This document shows, piece after piece, positions 5,504 to 13,408 of a stretch of 21,616 nt of DNA; position 1 is the stretch's first letter; every line of letters starts with the position of its first letter. A program made the position numbers and the translations under genes. The DNA is from Candidatus Woesearchaeota archaeon. Its GTDB lineage: Archaea > Nanobdellota > Nanobdellia > Woesearchaeales > UBA10216. The DNA lies in NCBI GenBank assembly GCA_016180085.1, contig JACPBX010000029.1, positions 1 through 21,616 of the forward strand, given 5' to 3'. The notes under the pieces are model-generated. The model was given only the letters and a program-made list of their open reading frames with translations, ran no database searches and was not told where the DNA came from.

Positions 5504-5519
5504 TGCCGGGATCGCATAA
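5504..5519 (+). repeat. Duplication of the tRNA-Ser(GGA) 5' end (TGCCGGGATCGCATAA)
   Basis: Identical to 6512-6527. Confidence 0.92.
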
Positions 5520-5611
5520 ACTTCTGAAAATTTTCCAAAATTTTCGTAATTAGCACTGGACACTGGACAAATGCCCGGCGAGAGTATATAAGCAACTTCT
5601 TCAAAAGGCTC

Positions 5612-5783: not shown

Positions 5784-6479
5784 ATGAATATTGCAACAAG
5801 AAACAAATTAAACATTATTTCGCGTTGGAAAAAAATTCAAGAAAAAGAAAAACATTACATTGAACAGGTAGGCACTCAACACATACATCTAAAAGCTCGG
5901 ATTCTGGGGTACTTAGCCGGAGATGGCAACATCTATATTGGAAAAACTATTCATAATCGTCATTACAGCATAAGATTCTTCCCGGATCACTCTTCATTGC
6001 TGGAACCATTTTGCGAGGCTTTTGTAAAGGTTTATAATAAAGCGCCTATAATTAAGCAACTAAAGAATAAGTATTGTGTAACTGTGGATTCAAAAACAGT
6101 TCTCTTTAATATTATTTCATCGGCGCGTTTTGGGGTGGTTAAATGGGAAGTTCCATTTGCCTTTCTTAGTAATGAACAATCAAAAATAGAATGGTTAAGA
6201 GCATTTTTTGACGCAGAAGGCTATGTTGGAAAAGACCATATAAAAATCCAAACGGTAAATAAAAAGGGAATGAACCAAGTTATGGAACTCTTGGAGCATT
6301 TTGGCATCCAAACTAATATGTATGAGTACAAACCCAAAAATAGCAGATGGCGCACAAATCATATACTAATCATCCACACGAAAGTTTCAAGAATTAGGTT
6401 TCTTGAAAAGATAGGTTTTAACCATAGTCAGAAAAAACAAAAGTTGGAGCAAACACTAAATTTTATAAAGGAATCATAG
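5784..6479 (+). CDS. Free-standing two-motif LAGLIDADG (intein/DOD-type) homing endonuclease
   Basis: Motifs ILGYLAGDG and WLRAFFDAEG, C-terminal RFLEKIGF...KKQKL; visibly more AT-rich than the flanking genes. Confidence 0.9.
   Translation: MNIATRNKLNIISRWKKIQEKEKHYIEQVGTQHIHLKARILGYLAGDGNIYIGKTIHNRHYSIRFFPDHSSLLEPFCEAFVKVYNKAPIIKQLKNKYCVTVDSKTVLFNIISSARFGVVKWEVPFAFLSNEQSKIEWLRAFFDAEGYVGKDHIKIQTVNKKGMNQVMELLEHFGIQTNMYEYKPKNSRWRTNHILIIHTKVSRIRFLEKIGFNHSQKKQKLEQTLNFIKES
6462..6469 (+). promoter_or_regulatory. Putative TATA box for tRNA-Ser(GGA), embedded in the endonuclease 3' end
   Basis: TTTATAAA ~44 nt upstream of the mature tRNA 5' end. Confidence 0.4.
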
Positions 6480-6512
6480 TCCAATACTTACGCCGGGCTA
6501 GGCCTTACAGAT

Positions 6513-6616
6513 GCCGGGATCGCATAACCTGGTAGTGCGCAGATAAGAGAAACTTAGTGTAACCCTGGAAAGGCTGTTCCCGCAAGGGTATCTGGGTTCA
6601 AATCCCAGTCCCGGCG
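6513..6616 (+). tRNA. tRNA-Ser(GGA) with a 20-nt non-canonical intron at 29/30 (6543-6562)
   Basis: Acceptor GCCGGGA/TCCCGGC+G; anticodon stem CAG|CC-CTGGAAA-GGCTG; long variable arm; T-arm CTGGG-TTCAAAT-CCCAG; BHB-type motif with GCGC/GTGT central helix and TAAG/CTTA intron stem. Confidence 0.93.
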
Positions 6617-6661
6617 TTAAGCAACGACGGGCTGGGGCTCCAAGCCGCTATGGCGAGGTTG

Positions 6662-6675
6662 TCCCAGTCCCGGCG
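6662..6675 (+). repeat. att-like copy 1 of the tRNA-Ser(GGA) 3' end (TCCCAGTCCCGGCG)
   Basis: 14-bp exact match to 6603-6616. Confidence 0.9.
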
Positions 6676-6748
6676 CTTTCTTTTTGTTGCAATTTATTAG
6701 TGATAAATAGTAGAAAGGTTTATAATTGATTGCTGAATAACAAAATTC

Positions 6749-7492
6749 ATGGTAGAAGGCAACATAGAATACATTGACTCAATAGCAGCCGTTGTTCGCG
6801 GTGAGAAAGTGCAAGCAGTAAAGGCTGATGAAGATACCGGACTTGCGCAACTGCGAGTTCTTTCACTCACTGAAATGCTGGAGGCCATGTGGGCATTCAT
6901 ACCTCGGATAAATGAGTGGCGCAATGTCAACAAGGAAAGCGGTAACGGTATTGCCCCGGGCGGATTCAGAGGAACATATTCAGAAACAAATACTAAGATT
7001 CTCAGAAGTCTGGCAAAAGAGTACGGTGAGTTACACGTGTATCATAGTCATACACTTCCAGGCTTGTTAAAAGGTGGCGAGCCGTATCCAGCAAGCTTTG
7101 CGGGTGTAAAAAAGCTAATGCAGGTACACGCTGCTAGTGGAGTTCCCACAGATGGAGATATTATTGTAGCACATACAATACACCTGATGATTGACGAAGC
7201 CCCCATTACCAGTGGGGTCATACATCCGTATGGCGTCACAACGTACCAGCTTGATGACTCATTAAAACCGAGCAGGGCTGAACTAGAAGGTATAGCAAAC
7301 GCTATTTATGGCAAAATTTCAAGACCGCTGTTTTTTGAAAGAAATGTAACGGATGTCCGTAAATATCGCGGATTAGATGAAGAAGGAAGATACGCATTCA
7401 TTGGCGATGCAGTTGAGCGAGCTCTACGCGGCGTAGCGGATATGCTTACTACAGACTTTAAACGCATGCCTCGGATTGTATTGAAGTCATAA
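6749..7492 (+). CDS. Hypothetical cassette protein, possible JAB/MPN-like metalloprotein
   Basis: 247-aa ORF; HVYHSHT followed later by PTDGD resembles the JAMM HxH...P(S/T)xxD motif with an insertion. Confidence 0.55.
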   Translation: MVEGNIEYIDSIAAVVRGEKVQAVKADEDTGLAQLRVLSLTEMLEAMWAFIPRINEWRNVNKESGNGIAPGGFRGTYSETNTKILRSLAKEYGELHVYHSHTLPGLLKGGEPYPASFAGVKKLMQVHAASGVPTDGDIIVAHTIHLMIDEAPITSGVIHPYGVTTYQLDDSLKPSRAELEGIANAIYGKISRPLFFERNVTDVRKYRGLDEEGRYAFIGDAVERALRGVADMLTTDFKRMPRIVLKS

Positions 7493-7565
7493 AGGCAAAC
7501 TGAATCAAGAAGGTCGTTGCATTACTAAACTGTAAGAGAAAAATGAACTGAATGTTCAGGGCTCC

Positions 7566-7578
7566 GTCCCGGCGCTTT
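7566..7578 (+). repeat. att-like copy 2 of the tRNA-Ser 3' end (GTCCCGGCGCTTT)
   Basis: 13-bp exact match to 6667-6679; 9 bp match to tRNA 6608-6616. Confidence 0.8.
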
Positions 7579-8806
7579 ATTTTCCCGTGCTTAAACTTCT
7601 CAGAACCTGTGCCCTTCTCAAAGCTTCCGCTTTTTTCGCGTAATTAAGCTCAGCTGCTTTTTCATAAGCTTCTGCTGCTTCTTTATGCCTGTTTGATTTT
7701 TCCAGCGCAACGCCCAGGTTATAGAATGCTCTGCCGTTGCTGTTGTCAACCTTTACTACCTGCTGCAAAATCTTAACAGCCTTTTCAGGATGACCGCCCT
7801 GCTCGTAAATTGCCCCGAGATTTGTCAGGGCGTTAAAATCGTTCGGGTTCCTTTTCAGCCCCTCGACTATAACGTCCCTGGCTGCGTTAAGCATTCCCTT
7901 CCTTGAGTAGGCAACCCCCAGGCTAAAGTAAGGTGATGGGTAATGCTCGTTCAGCTCTACGGCTTTTTTGAACGTTTCAATAGCGCTGTCCAGTTCGCCC
8001 AGCTTGCTGAGGCAGACCCCAAGGCTTTGGTAAGCCTCAACGAATTTGCTGTCAAGCTCAATTGCTTTTTCAAAATACTCCTTCGCCTTTGCAAAGTTTT
8101 CAGCCTCTCTTTCCACTGTGCCCATCTCCATCCAAGAACGCGGGTTATTAGGGTCTGCTGCGATCTTTTTCAGACCAATCCTGCGGTAGTGCTCAGGCTT
8201 CGCCTTTAGGTAATCTGCTGATTTCTTTTCCTTGAAATGGTGGATAGGCACGTCAACAACTGCATACTTGCCGCCGCTTCTTTCAATAGATGGCTCAACA
8301 AGCTCATGAGCAATTCCCTCAAACTTTATTTCTGTCCTGTTCCTGAACAGACGGACTATTAGGCGGGGAACCCATCCTGTAAACCCTTCGCTCTCTTCGT
8401 ATGTGTCATTTATCGTCCAAAGAAAATCCTCGCGGTAGGTGTTGTTGGTGTAGTTTCTTTGCACGAGACTGTAGCCATCGTATTCATTATCAGAAATCAG
8501 CCGCTTTATTTTGTCAAAGTCAGAAGCTGCTATTGCCTCGTCGGCATCCAACACAAGAATCCAGTCTCCTCTTGCATGCTTTATTCCTTCGTTTCTGGCT
8601 GCTGATGTGTCATCGTTCCATTCAAAAAAGTAAACCTCCGCACCCAGCTTTTTGGCAATTTCAACTGTATCGTCACTGCTGCCTGTGTCAATCACTATAA
8701 CTTGGTCAACAAGCCCTTTGACAGAGCTGATGCATTTCTCAATCCAAGCAGATTCATTCTTCACAATCATGCACAGGGTAATAGTGAGGTTTTTATCCGC
8801 TACCAT
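7577..8806 (-). CDS. GT2 family glycosyltransferase with C-terminal TPR repeats
   Basis: Likely start ATG 8806 (MVADKNLTITLCMIVKNE); DTGSSD, ARNEGI, WILVLDADE, HELV; multiple TPR repeats. Confidence 0.92.
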   Translation of the reverse strand: MVADKNLTITLCMIVKNESAWIEKCISSVKGLVDQVIVIDTGSSDDTVEIAKKLGAEVYFFEWNDDTSAARNEGIKHARGDWILVLDADEAIAASDFDKIKRLISDNEYDGYSLVQRNYTNNTYREDFLWTINDTYEESEGFTGWVPRLIVRLFRNRTEIKFEGIAHELVEPSIERSGGKYAVVDVPIHHFKEKKSADYLKAKPEHYRRIGLKKIAADPNNPRSWMEMGTVEREAENFAKAKEYFEKAIELDSKFVEAYQSLGVCLSKLGELDSAIETFKKAVELNEHYPSPYFSLGVAYSRKGMLNAARDVIVEGLKRNPNDFNALTNLGAIYEQGGHPEKAVKILQQVVKVDNSNGRAFYNLGVALEKSNRHKEAAEAYEKAAELNYAKKAEALRRAQVLRSLSTGK

Positions 8807-8903
8807 AACATATGCGGTTGCCCAAGCGATTAAATAGTTTTCCACTGGGCACTGGACACTTGTGCGGCAAAGCTTTTTTAATCCTATCCTCTTCCTGAAG
8901 CCT

Positions 8904-9992
8904 ATGCCGCGAATAATAATGCACATGGACCTTGACGCCTTCTACGCTGCAGTTGAGCAGCGCGAGCATCCGGAATGGAAAGGGCTGCCTGTTGTTGTTG
9001 GCGCAGACCCCAAGGGAGGCAAAGGCCGTGGCGTTGTAATGACCTGCAGCTACGAAGGGCGAAAGTTCGGCATAAAGTCGGCAATGCCAATCTCAAAAGC
9101 GTACAGGCTTTGCCCAACCGCAATATACACGCCGCCAAACTTTCCCCTTTACACCGCAGCATCCGAAGCTGTGATGAACATTCTCCGCAGCTTCAGCGAC
9201 AAGTTTGAGCAGGTCAGCATTGACGAAGCATTCATTGACGTAACAGCAAAGGTTAGCAGCGGCGATAAAAGCGAAATAGACAAATTCGCAGCTGCAATAA
9301 AAAACGAAATTGGTGAAAAGGAAAAGCTGAGCTGCAGCATCGGCGTTGCCTCAAACAAGCTCGTTGCGAAGGTTGCGTCAGACTTTAAAAAACCTGACGG
9401 CTTGACAATTGTCGAGCCCGGAAAGGAAAAGGATTTCCTGTCACCGCTGCCTGCGCGAAAGCTGATTGGCGTTGGCGAGAAAACAGAGGCAGTTCTGAAA
9501 GGGCTGGGCATCAGCACAATCGGCGAGCTGGCCGCTTTGCCGGAAGACTTCCTCCACAAAGAATTTGGCAAATACGGCCTTTACCTCCATGACGCAGCCA
9601 ACGGCATTGACAACAGCGAAGTCGAAGAAAATTATGAGATAAAGTCCATAAACCGGAACTTCACCTTTGAAGAGGATACCAAGGACGACCAACTCATCTT
9701 CGCAGCCATTGACGAGATGCTGGAGGACGCACACAATGCTCTTGCAGCGAACAACTTTTGCTGCAGAACCGTTGGCGTAAGGGTAAGATTTGAGGACTTT
9801 GAAACGCACACCAAAGAAAAAACGCTGAGCGAGGCAACAGCAGACATCAACACAATTAGAAAAGTTGCAAAACAGCTGCTGCAGCCGTTCTTCTCTGACA
9901 AAAGAAAGATAAGGCAGGTTGGGATAAGGATGGCTCACCTGGAGCAGAAAAGCAGCAGCCAAAAGCTAGTCAGCGAATACTTCCATCAGTAA
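8904..9992 (+). CDS. dinB: DNA polymerase IV (Y family)
   Basis: Likely start ATG 8904; HMDLDAFYAAVEQ, SYEGRKFGIKSAMP, SIDEAFID, SIGVASNKLVAKVASDFKKPDG, little-finger domain. Confidence 0.97.
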   Translation: MPRIIMHMDLDAFYAAVEQREHPEWKGLPVVVGADPKGGKGRGVVMTCSYEGRKFGIKSAMPISKAYRLCPTAIYTPPNFPLYTAASEAVMNILRSFSDKFEQVSIDEAFIDVTAKVSSGDKSEIDKFAAAIKNEIGEKEKLSCSIGVASNKLVAKVASDFKKPDGLTIVEPGKEKDFLSPLPARKLIGVGEKTEAVLKGLGISTIGELAALPEDFLHKEFGKYGLYLHDAANGIDNSEVEENYEIKSINRNFTFEEDTKDDQLIFAAIDEMLEDAHNALAANNFCCRTVGVRVRFEDFETHTKEKTLSEATADINTIRKVAKQLLQPFFSDKRKIRQVGIRMAHLEQKSSSQKLVSEYFHQ

Positions 9993-10001
9993 ATTTTTTA
10001 A

Positions 10002-10598
10002 ATGAGTGTCGGCAAAATCCTATTTATGAGGCTAAAATTGCTTTTCGTCACTGTTGCAATTGTTGCCTTATTAATATCAGGTTGCTCAGCTGAAAAAGAA
10101 AAAATGAACACCCGCGTCATTCTGGAAACAAGCAAAGGAACAATAGAAATAGAGCTTAACCAGCAGCAAGCACCAGTTACTGTTGCAAACTTTCTCGCAT
10201 ACGTTAATGAAGGGCATTATGACGGCACTGTTTTCCACCGCGTAATTCCTGGCTTCATGATACAGGGAGGCGGGTTTACTCCAGATGGCACCCAGAAGCC
10301 AACCAGAGAGCCCATCAAGCTTGAATCAAACAACGGCCTCAAGAATGAAATGGGGACAATCGCCATGGCAAGGACGTCAGTGCCCGACAGCGCAACGAGC
10401 CAGTTCTTCATAAACGTGGCAAACAACGACTTCCTGAACTACGCGCCGGGCAACGACGGCTACGCTGCGTTCGGAAAAGTGGTGAGCGGCATGGAAGCTG
10501 TAAACGCCATAGCCGCTGTAGAAACCGGCAACAGGGAAGGCAACTCTGACTGGCCTGTTGAGGATATCGTCATCACGAAGGCGTACGTGAAAAAATAG
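10002..10598 (+). CDS. Cyclophilin-type peptidyl-prolyl cis-trans isomerase with signal peptide/lipobox
   Basis: FHRVIPGFMIQGGG, GTIAMART, SATSQFFIN, YAAFGKV; N-terminal hydrophobic stretch ending LLISGC (start may be ATG 10026). Confidence 0.95.
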   Translation: MSVGKILFMRLKLLFVTVAIVALLISGCSAEKEKMNTRVILETSKGTIEIELNQQQAPVTVANFLAYVNEGHYDGTVFHRVIPGFMIQGGGFTPDGTQKPTREPIKLESNNGLKNEMGTIAMARTSVPDSATSQFFINVANNDFLNYAPGNDGYAAFGKVVSGMEAVNAIAAVETGNREGNSDWPVEDIVITKAYVKK

Positions 10599-10696
10599 TA
10601 TAAACCTTTAAAAAGCGTTCCGCAGTTGTTTCTCGATTGACCCTTTTCGGGAGAAGGAATCCGTTTTTGGATAAACCCTTTTTCTAAAAGGGTTTT

Positions 10697-10829
10697 GCCC
10701 CGTTCGTTCAGTCCGGTCAAGGACACGGCCCTTTCGCGTGACCTTTTACTCGCTTGCGAGCGAGCAAAAGCTCAACCAAAAACGTCACGAGGTAAGGCCG
10801 GGACCCGGGTTCAAATCCCGGACGGGGCA
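10697..10829 (+). tRNA. tRNA-Glu(TTC) with a 58-nt canonical 37/38 intron (10737-10794)
   Basis: Acceptor GCCCCGT/ACGGGGC+A; anticodon stem CGGCC/GGCCG; BHB CTTT/GAGG plus GTGAC/GTCAC; T-arm CCGGG-TTCAAAT-CCCGG. Confidence 0.95.
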
Positions 10830-10846
10830 CCTAATCCTTATACCGA

Positions 10847-10892
10847 TTATAACCCTACAAAATGCAAAGTTTTAAATATTTGTAGGGTTACC
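10847..10892 (+). promoter_or_regulatory. Fic operon promoter: TATA box (10871-10878) flanked by a 12-bp inverted repeat; first copy of a degenerate direct repeat
   Basis: TAACCCTACAAA (10850-10861) / TTTGTAGGGTTA (10879-10890) around TTTAAATA. Confidence 0.65.
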
Positions 10893-10900
10893 TTCTTTAT

Positions 10901-11884
10901 ATGGTGTTTGTCAGCAAGAAGGGCATTAAGGGCAAGATGAGGTATTACCTAGAGAAGTCAGTGCGGCTTCCTGGCGGCGCTGTGAAGAAGTTCTCAGTTT
11001 ATCTCAAGGATTATGAGCCTAAAAGCGGATTAAGAGGTCTTGATAGCTATGTTGCATTGCTTAATGCAAAAGCGCGTGCAACTGTGATAAACCATGTCGC
11101 AGAGTTCTACACGAAATCGAGCATTTTTAGCAACGGAGTCATTAAAGGGCTTGAAGAGGTAAAACTGGCTTACAACGGGCTCAGAAAGAAAATAAGCAAG
11201 AAACAGCTTCAGGATGTTATAGATAGATTTACTGTCAATTTCACGTATGAGTCAAACGCTATTGAGGGTAATTCATTAACTCTTAAAGATGTGGCAATTG
11301 TCCTGCATGAGAAAAAGGCTATAGAAGGAAAGGACCTCAGGGAAATTTATGAGGCTTTGAACACGCGGGAGGCAATGAAGCTCATATTCAACAACAAGCT
11401 TAAGATAAGTGAACATGACATAATTAAATTGCACAAAATCCTTGTACGGAACACAGATGTTGCTTTTGGCTACAAAAAGCTGCCGAATTTCCTCTTAGGG
11501 CGTGACACGCAGACTACTCCGCCTGAAAAGGTGGAAGAGGAGATGCGTGAGCTGATAACCTGGTATCATGAAAATGAAAGAATGCACCCGCTCGAAAGGG
11601 CATCAATTTTCCATGGCAGGTTCGAGACTATACACCCCTTTGAAGATGGAAATGGCAGGGTAGGCAGGCTGCTGATTAACATAATGCTGATGGACAACGG
11701 CTACCCGCCACTTATCATAAGAAAGACACACAGGATTGCTTATCTGGCCGGTTTAGAGGCGTTTGACCATGGTTACAGCGACAAGCTGAAGAGACTCCTT
11801 ATTGACAAATACAAAACAACTTACAAAAAATTCTTTGAAGTATATGTCCAGTATTTGAATTTTGAGAAAAAACAAGGGTGGTAA
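10901..11884 (+). CDS. Fic family protein (class II, with intramolecular inhibitory motif)
   Basis: Canonical HPFEDGNGRVGR motif; N-terminal (S/T)xxxE(G/N) motif SNAIEGN. Confidence 0.95.
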   Translation: MVFVSKKGIKGKMRYYLEKSVRLPGGAVKKFSVYLKDYEPKSGLRGLDSYVALLNAKARATVINHVAEFYTKSSIFSNGVIKGLEEVKLAYNGLRKKISKKQLQDVIDRFTVNFTYESNAIEGNSLTLKDVAIVLHEKKAIEGKDLREIYEALNTREAMKLIFNNKLKISEHDIIKLHKILVRNTDVAFGYKKLPNFLLGRDTQTTPPEKVEEEMRELITWYHENERMHPLERASIFHGRFETIHPFEDGNGRVGRLLINIMLMDNGYPPLIIRKTHRIAYLAGLEAFDHGYSDKLKRLLIDKYKTTYKKFFEVYVQYLNFEKKQGW

Positions 11885-12275
11885 CGTGCTACACAGTCAG
11901 AAGGAAAAAATGGCAAACAAAATGAAGGAAGGCGCTCTTTATTGTGCAAAATGCGACTCTGAGATGAGACTGGCGCTGCTTCCAAGTTACGAGTACCTAG
12001 AAGGTCACCCTCTTAGCAATGTGCAGGCTTACAAATGCCCTAAATGCGGCAACGTGTTCTTCACTGAGGAACAAGCAGCACGCATGAAGCAAAGGACAAA
12101 TGCGCTTATTGAAAGCACCTTCGGCTTCCACAGAAAAATAACCGTTACAGGCAGGAGTCTGGCAGTAACAATTCCACAGGAGCTGGCCAGCCATATGAAC
12201 CTTAGCAAAGGCGTAACCGTAAAAATAATCCCATCAACAGGCTGGCTCACGATAAGGAAAGTAAAGGCATTATAA
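11862..12275 (+). CDS. YgiT/MqsA-type zinc ribbon fused to an AbrB/MazE/SpoVT DNA-binding domain (putative antitoxin/regulator)
   Basis: CAKC...CPKC; C-terminal RKITVTGRSLAVTIPQELASHMNLSKG.V; real start probably GTG 11886 or ATG 11910. Confidence 0.8.
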   Translation: MRKNKGGNVLHSQKEKMANKMKEGALYCAKCDSEMRLALLPSYEYLEGHPLSNVQAYKCPKCGNVFFTEEQAARMKQRTNALIESTFGFHRKITVTGRSLAVTIPQELASHMNLSKGVTVKIIPSTGWLTIRKVKAL

Positions 12276-12312
12276 TTCTACAAAATCGAAATGTTTGAAT
12301 ATTAGGGTTACC
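12270..12312 (+). repeat. Second copy of the degenerate direct repeat flanking the Fic module
   Basis: TTATAAttCTACAAAATcgAAAtGTTTgAATATTAGGGTTACC aligns with 10847-10892. Confidence 0.75.
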
Positions 12313-12370
12313 AGACTAACATTATTTCTTGGTAATCTTTATAAGCTAAACGTAACGTTCTTCCCTTTAT

Positions 12371-12500
12371 GCCGGGAGTGGACGATCCGGTGCGTCCGTC
12401 CGCCTCGAATGACCCACGGAGACAACATGTCGACTGTGGCTCAACCAAAAAGTGAAAGCGGATTGCGAAAGCTATCGGGGTTCAAATCCCTGTCCCGGCG
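12371..12500 (+). tRNA. tRNA-Ser(CGA) with a 47-nt 37/38 intron (12410-12456) and atypical D-arm
   Basis: Acceptor GCCGGGA/TCCCGGC+G; anticodon stem TCCGC/GCGGA with loop CT-CGA-A; variable arm with GAAA loop; T-arm CGGGG-TTCAAAT-CCCTG; BHB central helix is imperfect. Confidence 0.85.
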
Positions 12501-12632
12501 TTTTCTTCTTGGTTTAAAGTACGACCGGTTTTAGCGGCGGAATATATCAGCCATCTTGGCTAAAGCCGGGTTATAAAAAATAAATGTTATATTTACAAAA
12601 GAGTTAAATAATAAATCTCATTACAAGCTATA

Positions 12633-13310
12633 ATGAACAAACAAACTCAATTTAATCGAATAAAAGAAAGCCAGTGCCCTCTGGACAACAGAGTTCTTGT
12701 CGCTGTTGATGAGTCATATTCCGATGCGCGGCCCGGCTTGACTTACATGGCGGTCGTTTGCTCGCTTCCAAGACCTGATTTAAATCCCGCTTTGTTGTCA
12801 CACAGGCGTGATTCCCAACACCGCATTACACCCGATCTTGCGTGGAGAATTTTTGTTAATCCTGCCGCGTATGACTTGATTGTGGTTGGCATGGCTGTTA
12901 AGTCTGGTACAAAAAAGGGAGAACAGGTCAAGTTTTGGTCTCACGGTATTAGATACGGCATAGAACTTGTTGAAATGAAGTTGGAAGAGCTCAATGTTCC
13001 CGGTAGTATCGACCAGGTTTTTGTGGACGGTGAAAAGCCAAAATATTTCAGGGATGAGCAATGGAATGAGCAATTTGGATCATTACGGCTTGCTTTTACA
13101 CCGAAAACCGGGGGGCGAAATGGATATAATCTTAACCTTGATTGCTGTGCTGCACGGTTGCTTGCCGTGGCTGATGGCCTTGCAGGACAAATTAGGTATA
13201 GCGTTGATGGTAGATGGCATCGGGATAAGGTTGTAGCAATAGTTGCGGCTCGCCATAGTCCCTTAGCACAGTATGCCCCTGCACTACCTGACTTTGAACT
13301 TAGAATTTAA
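12633..13310 (+). CDS. DUF3800-like (RNase H-fold) cassette protein
   Basis: N-terminal VAVDES, central VFVDG and C-terminal LLAVADGLAG match the DES...D...QxADxxA pattern of DUF3800; recognised by eye. Confidence 0.55.
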   Translation: MNKQTQFNRIKESQCPLDNRVLVAVDESYSDARPGLTYMAVVCSLPRPDLNPALLSHRRDSQHRITPDLAWRIFVNPAAYDLIVVGMAVKSGTKKGEQVKFWSHGIRYGIELVEMKLEELNVPGSIDQVFVDGEKPKYFRDEQWNEQFGSLRLAFTPKTGGRNGYNLNLDCCAARLLAVADGLAGQIRYSVDGRWHRDKVVAIVAARHSPLAQYAPALPDFELRI

Positions 13311-13388
13311 GCAGCAGAATCCAAGCAGGACATCAGCCTTTTGAATGGCGGTCAGATTGGGTGCGACGTCGCACTGCTCGTCCGCCGT

Positions 13389-13400
13389 CCTGTCCCGGCG
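13389..13400 (+). repeat. att-like copy of the tRNA-Ser(CGA) 3' end (CCTGTCCCGGCG)
   Basis: 12-bp exact match to 12489-12500. Confidence 0.88.
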
Positions 13401-13408
13401 CTTATAAT

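Follow-up and report, generated by a model that had tools for sequence, protein, structure and literature searches.

The stretch of DNA analysed here (the window) is an entire 21.6-kb contig from a groundwater Woesearchaeota (DPANN) genome bin of 1.0 Mb and 83% completeness, and it carries three short inserts, units 1 to 3, directly behind its two tRNA-Ser genes. The last 9-14 nt of the tRNA gene heading the locus are repeated at the end of each unit. The likeliest reading is that these units are leftovers or hitch-hikers, lacking an integrase, of islands that target tRNA-Ser genes and are still present in relatives. We put at about 0.65 the probability that they are integrase-less mini-elements at a tRNA-Ser attachment site (attB) that arose by site-specific integration, tandem stacking, and loss of the integrase; given such an origin, we see roughly even odds that at least some units could still be mobilised. 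This is a known process in an interesting variant, not a new kind of system. What is new is the scale and regularity of the units (sub-kb to 1.8 kb, with one or two genes) and the retention of their arms while the cargo is swapped. An original prediction, made from the letters of the window without database searches, had proposed an integron-like capture of gene cassettes. Discrete, foreign, and variable inserts joined exactly at a core did emerge from our analysis, but an integron-type integrase, an attI site, and a common attC-like hairpin did not.

Core repeats and units behind the two tRNA-Ser genes

The nine-nucleotide core GTCCCGGCG occurs five times in the window, against 0.05 copies expected, and none of 100 shuffled sequences reached five. 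All five copies are on the + strand, ending at 6616, 6675, 7574, 12500, and 13400, and the whole 1-Mb genome holds just one more, six in total. As shown in Table 1, two of the window's copies are the 3' ends of the tRNA-Ser genes themselves and the other three close the units. The predicted exact copies of the tRNA 3' ends, of 14, 9, and 12 nt, were all recovered: a 14-nt repeat, TCCCAGTCCCGGCG, at 6603-6616 and 6662-6675; GTCCCGGCG alone at the end of unit 2; and a 12-nt repeat, CCTGTCCCGGCG, at 12489-12500 and 13389-13400. The units, expected to span 59, about 900, and 900 nt, measured 59, 899, and 900 nt. Both tRNA-Ser genes are complete despite the downstream inserts, and such direct tRNA 3' repeats at the insert ends, together with an intact tRNA gene, are the arrangement that marks a tRNA-targeting integrative element.

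The tRNA genes themselves required ARAGORN with introns allowed; neither tRNA-Ser gene of the window was detected by default ARAGORN or by Rfam. In intron mode, tRNA-Ser(GGA) was called at 6512-6617 (20-nt anticodon-stem intron), tRNA-Ser(CGA) at 12370-12501 with a 47-nt canonical intron, and tRNA-Thr(UGU) at 10697-10831. In relatives, the tRNA-Ser(GGA) orthologues sit after SRP54.

Table 1. Coordinates of the tRNA-Ser genes, units, arms, and encoded proteins in the window
Feature	Position	Strand	Description	Basis
tRNA-Ser(GGA)	6513..6616	+	3' 9-14 nt = attachment core, attL side	ARAGORN -i, sequence
Unit 1	6617..6675	+	59 nt, no open reading frame, hairpin; ends in 14-nt tRNA 3'-end copy (6662-6675)	
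Unit 2	6676..7574	+	899 nt, one open reading frame; ends GGGCTCC + 9-nt core (7566-7574)	
P0001	6749..7492	+	247 aa, open reading frame of unit 2; orphan	
tRNA-Ser(CGA)	12371..12500	+	3' end = attachment core	ARAGORN -i, sequence
Unit 3	12501..13400	+	900 nt, one open reading frame; ends in 12-nt core copy (13389-13400)	
Unit 3 left arm	12501..12585	+	homologous to core-to-integrase-start stretch of relatives' islands	blastn
P0002	12633..13310	+	225 aa, open reading frame of unit 3; predicted RNase H-like fold, nearest RNase HII/H2	
Unit 3 right arm	13307..13400	+	13323-13400 homologous to right arm of 14-kb island and to small units elsewhere	

The unit ends are related to one another beyond the core, as had been proposed from their ordered motifs. 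TTAAGCA, TCCAAGC, and ATGGCG form a collinear chain of 20 nt in unit 1 and in 13307-13388, and 0 of 5,000 shuffles reached such a chain. GGGCTCC, which directly precedes the unit 2 core at 7559-7565, is also present within unit 1, which fits the view that the unit 2 end is an internally deleted version of a similar end. The G+C contents of the units (39-46%; 43.6% for unit 2) all lie below the 47.6% of the window. Two nucleotides past the unit 2 core begins the end of a GT2-TPR gene, and the equivalent boundary in a relative (genome G005) is placed likewise. Units 2 and 3 are nearly equal in length despite their unrelated open reading frames (ORFs); a size rule was considered and rejected, the relatives' units of 553-1811 nt arguing that the match is probably a coincidence.

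The junctions were reproduced independently. Logan contigs of other sequencing runs matched the window at 6589-7624, 6656-7624, and 12474-13390, each collinear and at 100% identity, which rules out binning or assembly errors as the source of the junctions. No alternative junctions appeared in these contigs.

The two encoded proteins, P0001 and P0002, are unrelated to each other, as anticipated, and each is single-copy in the genome. Neither had a match in Pfam, PHROGs, or NCBIfam, and a word-indexed search of 5.8 billion proteins gave no homologue of P0001 and returned only P0002 itself for P0002. For P0002, a set of 1.8 billion representative proteins yielded four distant homologues (29-36% identity), all from environmental assemblies and other groundwater organisms, and in their alignment D26, E27, D132, and D181 are invariant, a DEDD-type acidic set. 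An AlphaFold model built from this five-sequence alignment (predicted local distance difference test [pLDDT], 75.5; predicted template modelling score [pTM], 0.80) matched RNase HII/H2 structures (Foldseek E 6e-5; template modelling [TM] score, about 0.4-0.5) and an RNase_HII cluster in the ESM Atlas (TM 0.57). The model suggests that P0002 is probably an RNase H-like, nucleolytic protein. The single-sequence AlphaFold prediction was unusable (pLDDT 39), and a DUF3800 label drawn from atlas features was set aside, as Pfam confirmed it in none of five family members and only the broader RNase H-like fold is supported. One of the P0002 homologues lies close to an HNH nuclease and a phage-type integrase.

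Islands, arms, and arrays in related genomes

Our comparison covered 25 genomes: that of the window, 9 others of the same genus, and 15 more of the family. These relatives, given here under our own labels (G001 and the like), are kin, and counts across them are not independent. In two of them, G034 (contig C5) and G013 (contig C24), a protein of 440 and 414 aa, respectively, starts directly after the tRNA-Ser core, and both proteins match Phage_integrase PF00589 (E 2e-17 and 6e-10) and carry a zinc ribbon. The G034 island extends 14.2 kb to the next core and includes GmrSD and a type I restriction-modification system; the G013 island spans 9.4 kb, ends in a core, and includes a subtilase and surface proteins. 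Both are integrase-bearing homologues at the same attachment site as the window's units, and small units lie behind each. Members of this integrase family are widely distributed among DPANN and other archaea, where they lie beside various tRNA genes. In the G034 island, the two junction cores differ at an A/T position and only GTCCCGGCG is common to both sides; the crossover would therefore most likely fall inside these nine bases.

The arms of unit 3 connect it to these islands. Its left arm, alignable over the first ~65-85 nt of the unit, is 76% identical over 84 nt to the G013 island (blastn, E 3e-8) and 81% identical over 59 nt to a G034 unit (E 8e-10) that holds an integrase fragment, namely, the first ~47 codons; a C-terminal integrase fragment lies inside a further unit, in G003. 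The last 78 nt of unit 3 (13323-13400) are 80-84% identical (E 1e-14 to 4e-14) to the right ends of the 14-kb G034 island, of a 1811-nt G034 unit on another contig, and of two G003 units. The interiors of these arm-sharing elements have nothing in common. Within G034, the island and the 1811-nt unit are alike only in the last ~118 nt plus the core (98.4% identity over 128 nt). Unit 3 has the make-up of an integrase-less derivative of an island, and unit 2 has it in part, through its core and a 7-nt relic.

Clusters of the core recur in the family, where a search of related genomes had been proposed. Same-strand clusters of the 12-mer core CCWGTCCCGGCG within 2 kb were found in 8/25 genomes from 4 genera, and the reversed-pattern control gave about 0. 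The arrays comprise two to five cores with units of 50-1811 nt: G003 has two arrays of three cores each, contig C8 of G034 has one of four cores, and on contig C5 of G034 the 14-kb island is followed by four further units. The ORFs of these arrays lie in both orientations, and the right ends of the units are heterogeneous. Toxin-antitoxin systems make up most of the relatives' cargo, which includes MNT/HEPN pairs, an HTH/ParE pair, a DUF5615 PIN-like gene, a DUF2683/RelE-like pair, and AbiE. Overall, the cargo is accessory: toxin-antitoxin pairs in relatives, and a putative RNase H-like protein and an orphan protein in the window. The AbiEi/AbiEii pair is present in three copies (two in G003, one in G001) that are 83-90% identical, and the left end of the AbiE unit joins the core identically in three upstream contexts, one being the tRNA and the others two different unit ends.

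The content of orthologous tRNA-Ser sites differs between sister species, in agreement with the original prediction. Between tRNA-Ser(CGA) and a GT4 gene lie 900 nt in the window, 1509 nt with AbiE in G001, and 142 ORF-less nt in G005, each ending in the core; in G007, tRNA-Ser(CGA) is followed by a core-ended, ORF-less unit of 194 nt, and no GT4 gene was found downstream. The interval between tRNA-Ser(GGA) and the GT2-TPR gene varies from 0.6 to 3 kb, and its content is different in every genus member examined. G005, whose SRP54 is 94% identical, has a 594-nt two-gene unit between tRNA-Ser(GGA) and the GT2-TPR flank, with its right core decayed to a 5-nt relic right before the GT2-TPR gene end. 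G001, G003, and G008 have 1.8-3 kb of other DNA after tRNA-Ser(GGA) and no second core. The two-gene unit after tRNA-Ser(GGA) is the same in G005 (L036 reverse complement, 1882-2475) and in G003 (L041 reverse complement, from 1601); read by eye, it consists of a short antitoxin-like ORF and a RelE/ParE-like ORF.

In the mechanism that we favour, the 414- to 440-aa tyrosine integrases of Woesearchaeota islands would recombine an element site with the tRNA-Ser 3' end, presumably crossing over inside GTCCCGGCG, the only block always common to both junctions. Every integration would restore the tRNA and place another copy of the core at the distal end of the inserted DNA, and repeated integration at the same or an adjacent core would produce tandem elements such as the arrays seen in relatives. 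Integrase genes and most of the cargo would then be deleted, a route illustrated by the integrase fragments in units of two relatives. The product would be a unit bounded by cores, either with one or two genes or, like the 59-nt unit, consisting of arms only. Because island-type arms are retained, units could still move if an island integrase acted in trans to excise and reinsert them. Taken together, the retention of both arms around replaced cargo, the near-identical arm in an island and an unrelated unit, and the small, regular size of the units suggest non-autonomous elements using an island integrase in trans. The originally proposed recombinase acting in trans is plausible in that sense, with an island-type integrase on the same core in relatives as its candidate.

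Several observations weigh against this account. As had been predicted, the window encodes no integrase: its proteins had no PF00589 or PF16795 match, and its units do not carry the integrase gene of a self-sufficient tRNA-targeting island. A search for an orphan tyrosine recombinase had been suggested; the bin contains a single tyrosine recombinase, on contig C20, which passes the XerA equivalog cut-off (268.7 versus 220 bits) and scores below the integron-integrase cut-offs; integrases of the island type were found only in relatives. Any current mobility is therefore hypothetical. The bin is 83% complete, and islands are often left unbinned. Searches by tblastn with the island integrases detected no integrase remnant in the window's own units and nothing beyond XerA in the window's genome. 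Unit 2 has no arm homologous to any island examined, its ties being the 9-nt core and the 7-nt relic. The identity block of 9-14 nt is short compared with those of many tRNA-targeting elements. Lastly, a conserved hairpin with a compensatory change, described below, is neither required nor explained by integration and loss.

Elements of comparable organisation are known from bacteria and archaea. cis-Mobilizable elements (CIMEs) beside ICESt1/ICESt3-type elements of streptococci lack an integrase and accrete at one site (PMC5704250). Like the window's units, they are bounded by att repeats and stacked at one site, some without a recombination gene, and they presumably arose by deletion and would move upon joining an integrase-bearing element. 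Our units differ in their much smaller size (59 nt to 0.9 kb here, and at most 1.8 kb in relatives), in carrying one or two genes and no conjugation functions, in being archaeal, and in targeting a tRNA-Ser 3' end, and their mobilisation is putative. In Prochlorococcus, tycheposon islands consist of tandem elements and remnants separated by partial tRNAs (10.1101/2020.12.28.424599). They share with our case tyrosine-recombinase elements at tRNA genes, partial-tRNA separators, fragmented integrases, and extra partial tRNAs, but they belong to another domain of life and use another integrase family, whereas here we find a 9- to 14-nt repeat, single toxin-antitoxin-rich cassettes, and a family of hairpin units. 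For archaeal integrated elements, integrase loss after integration, tandem integration, and 'gene capture' have been described (She et al. 2001; review PMC8371274), and Caldiarchaeum has a 1.8-kb element flanked by tRNA fragments (PMC3293823). Those cases resemble ours in the tRNA gene as attB, direct repeats of part of the tRNA, a lost integrase, and several elements per locus; they differ in being kb-scale proviruses or plasmids of Sulfolobales, Thermococcales, Methanococcales, and Thaumarchaeota. Sub-kb cassette arrays with conserved arms in DPANN are not described in those archaeal reports.

Possible alternatives: decay, integron-like capture, and RNA-level origins

A first alternative is that the units are pure scars, that is, immobile, decaying remains of once-complete islands whose arms reflect recent common descent only. 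The integrase fragments in units of two relatives would fit such a history, as would the degenerate right cores (the 5-nt relic in G005 and the missing second cores in G001, G003, and G008), the apparently internally deleted right end of unit 2, and a genome with no integrase other than XerA. However, arms that remain 76-84% identical across genera around interiors that share nothing, the arm that is 98% identical between the G034 island and an unrelated small unit at another tRNA-Ser gene, and the AbiE unit with an identical left junction in three contexts are better accommodated by arm-specific retention or exchange than by uniform decay. We regard the scar explanation as unlikely.

A dedicated integron-like system, in which small circles with a hairpin mimicking the tRNA 3' end are captured by a specialised recombinase, possibly XerA, in parallel to attC x attI or CTX-phage/XerCD recombination, appears improbable. 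Integrons comprise IntI, attI, and attC, and their cassettes are small and mostly single-gene, many encoding toxin-antitoxin systems, with ends capable of forming hairpins. Integrons are also reported to occur in archaeal metagenome-assembled genomes (Ghaly et al. 2022). The likeness lies in the arrays of one- and two-gene units, whose wealth of toxin-antitoxin genes recalls chromosomal integrons, and XerA is the bin's only tyrosine recombinase. Unlike integrons, the arrays are not headed by IntI, attI, and a cassette promoter (Pc); they begin at a tRNA gene, XerA is on another contig, and the repeat is the tRNA's own 3' end. Judged by junction sequence and folding, ends of the attC type (R''-L''...L'-R', with GTTRRRY) are absent as well: the junctions share no GTTRRRY, the right ends are heterogeneous, and significant folds are confined to the short ORF-less units. 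ORFs in both orientations also speak against such a system, Rfam detects no known structured element here, and the island integrases on the same core, together with the common arms, offer a simpler source of recombination. The original prediction had itself named decayed remnants of integrase-bearing islands as the finding that would count against it, and part of this was seen: integrase fragments lie in units of two relatives, and small units lie behind the 9.4- and 14.2-kb islands. 'Integron-like system' therefore stands as an analogy only.

The hairpins that had been read into the unit ends held for unit 1 alone. Unit 1 folds better than its shuffles (z = -3.5, 0/200), but the end of unit 3 at 13307-13400 (z = -0.5) and that of unit 2 at 7493-7574 (z = +0.5) do not, so that significant hairpins are lacking from the ORF-bearing units and most ends are not hairpins. 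In unit 1, the 5' arm can pair with the copied T-stem/acceptor strand and a T-rich tract follows; this T-run is present after 6675 and absent after 6616. Unit 1 is one member of a conserved, ORF-less hairpin family, which has units of 50-68 nt in G013, in G015 (after both tRNA-Ser genes), and in G034 (two loci), and also forms the terminal ~50 nt of the 142-nt (G005) and 194-nt (G007) units. Six of seven hairpin units fold far better than core-fixed shuffles. The pairs were tabulated from single-sequence folds anchored at the 3' end, and a MAFFT alignment, not being structure-aware, led to no useful RNAalifold consensus. The stems of these short units reproduce the duplex of the tRNA gene's last 10-13 bp, and both this and the perfect 5' arm of G034 favour an integron-like reading: that arm, GCCGGGACTGGG, is exactly the 5' strand of acceptor plus T-stem, the complement of the copied end. 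The same holds for the variable position next to the core, which is A-U in the CCAG type and U-A in the CCTG type (G005 and G007), the swap tracking the type. At the extreme 3' end the pairing register is not constant across genomes: some have the discriminator base in a pair, and others leave it free. A hairpin unit may be a DNA site that recombines in folded form or a minihelix RNA transcribed together with the tRNA, or it may be what is left, arms only, of a type I right arm, to which unit 1 is related.

The least probable alternative places origin and function at the RNA level, with the unit co-transcribed with the tRNA and the second 3' copy serving as an intron-like or trailer structure instead of a DNA site, either as a T-arm intron with a duplicated exon end or as a tRNA-Ser minihelix that RNase P, RNase Z, and the CCA-adding enzyme would process; the T-run after the 59-nt unit, the resemblance of the short units to an acceptor/T-arm minihelix, genuine T-loop introns at the same place in the tRNA-Ser(GGA) genes of G002, G005, and G008, and the recurrence of a module of the 194-nt G007 unit in a canonical tRNA-Ser(CGA) intron of G005 speak for it, but the first tRNA copy is complete and makes splicing unnecessary, the pairing registers differ among genomes, and island-armed ORF units with integrases on the same core point to DNA recombination. 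With respect to a bulge-helix-bulge (BHB) tRNA intron, that copy is complete without any removal, and BHB motifs at the boundaries of the units were assessed visually alone. A derivation of unit 1 from the relatives' T-loop introns was dropped because the sequences, compared by eye, are not alignable.

Neighbouring elements and meaning for Woesearchaeota

Other insertions surround the tRNA genes of the window. The 5' end of tRNA-Ser(GGA) is also duplicated (18/19 nt, at 5504-5522 and 6512-6530), and the duplication encloses a LAGLIDADG_3 ORF at 5784-6479 (Pfam E 6e-17). A homologue of this ORF (42% identical) on contig C22 of G013 ends exactly at the 5' end of tRNA-Ser(CGA), and a left-end motif (CACTGGACACT ... 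TAAGCA) is kept between the two LAGLIDADG_3 units. The segment 5504-6530 has the appearance of a homing-endonuclease unit directed at the 5' side of tRNA-Ser genes. Between tRNA-Thr and tRNA-Ser(CGA), a Fic gene (10901-11884) and a Zn-ribbon/AbrB-like gene (11862-12275) are flanked by a 35-nt direct repeat (80% identical; 10846-12303). G005 retains the AbrB gene and the second repeat copy, with ~4.5 kb of other genes replacing Fic, and G007 has an island-type integrase in the region corresponding to Fic/AbrB, after DinB.

The introns of the tRNA genes are a further peculiarity. In relatives, tRNA-Ser genes (G005 L036, G008 L039, and G002 L042; loci in G013 and G034) have up to three introns, one of them at the T-loop position (exon TTCAAA, intron, exon TCCCAG...). 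Just 12 tRNAs were found in the whole G000 genome, even with ARAGORN in intron mode, so most tRNAs of the lineage are missed by standard detection. In the window, the introns of tRNA-Ser(CGA) and tRNA-Thr have GCTCAACCAAAAA in common. A structured module (AAGCTTGACCAA, two hairpins, and TGGGAAA) lies in the ORF-less G007 unit after tRNA-Ser(CGA) (L037, 14279-14472) and again within the canonical tRNA-Ser(CGA) intron of G005 (L036 reverse complement, ~11960-12070). These shared sequences may be a small palindromic element colonising introns and trailers.

For annotation, two rules follow from these loci: tRNA-Ser genes with up to three introns escape default tools, and extra copies of a tRNA 3' end are to be read as right-hand attachment sites of inserts, not as tRNA genes. 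How the hairpin unit comes to track its tRNA is a puzzle in its own right, and one that can be tested.

The genomes of DPANN archaea are very small, with few mobile elements recognised in them, and the 3' ends of their tRNA-Ser genes emerge here as hot spots of accessory-gene turnover. In relatives, the genes exchanged there are mainly toxin-antitoxin and nuclease genes, with type I restriction-modification and GmrSD on the large islands. A more far-reaching picture, which we offer tentatively, is that of a Woesearchaeota cassette economy at tRNA-Ser genes. Mini-elements of 50 nt to 1.8 kb, made of arms only or holding one or two genes, would live as non-autonomous parasites on island integrases and be shuffled between the GGA and CGA sites and between genera, forming integron-like toxin-antitoxin and nuclease arrays without an integron, and the 50- to 68-nt hairpin would be a minimal folded recombination site or a functional tRNA-Ser minihelix RNA. 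Continued movement in trans would make the small units the smallest known integrative cassettes of a tRNA site and, at the same time, a natural counterpart of integrons that draws on an ordinary island integrase.

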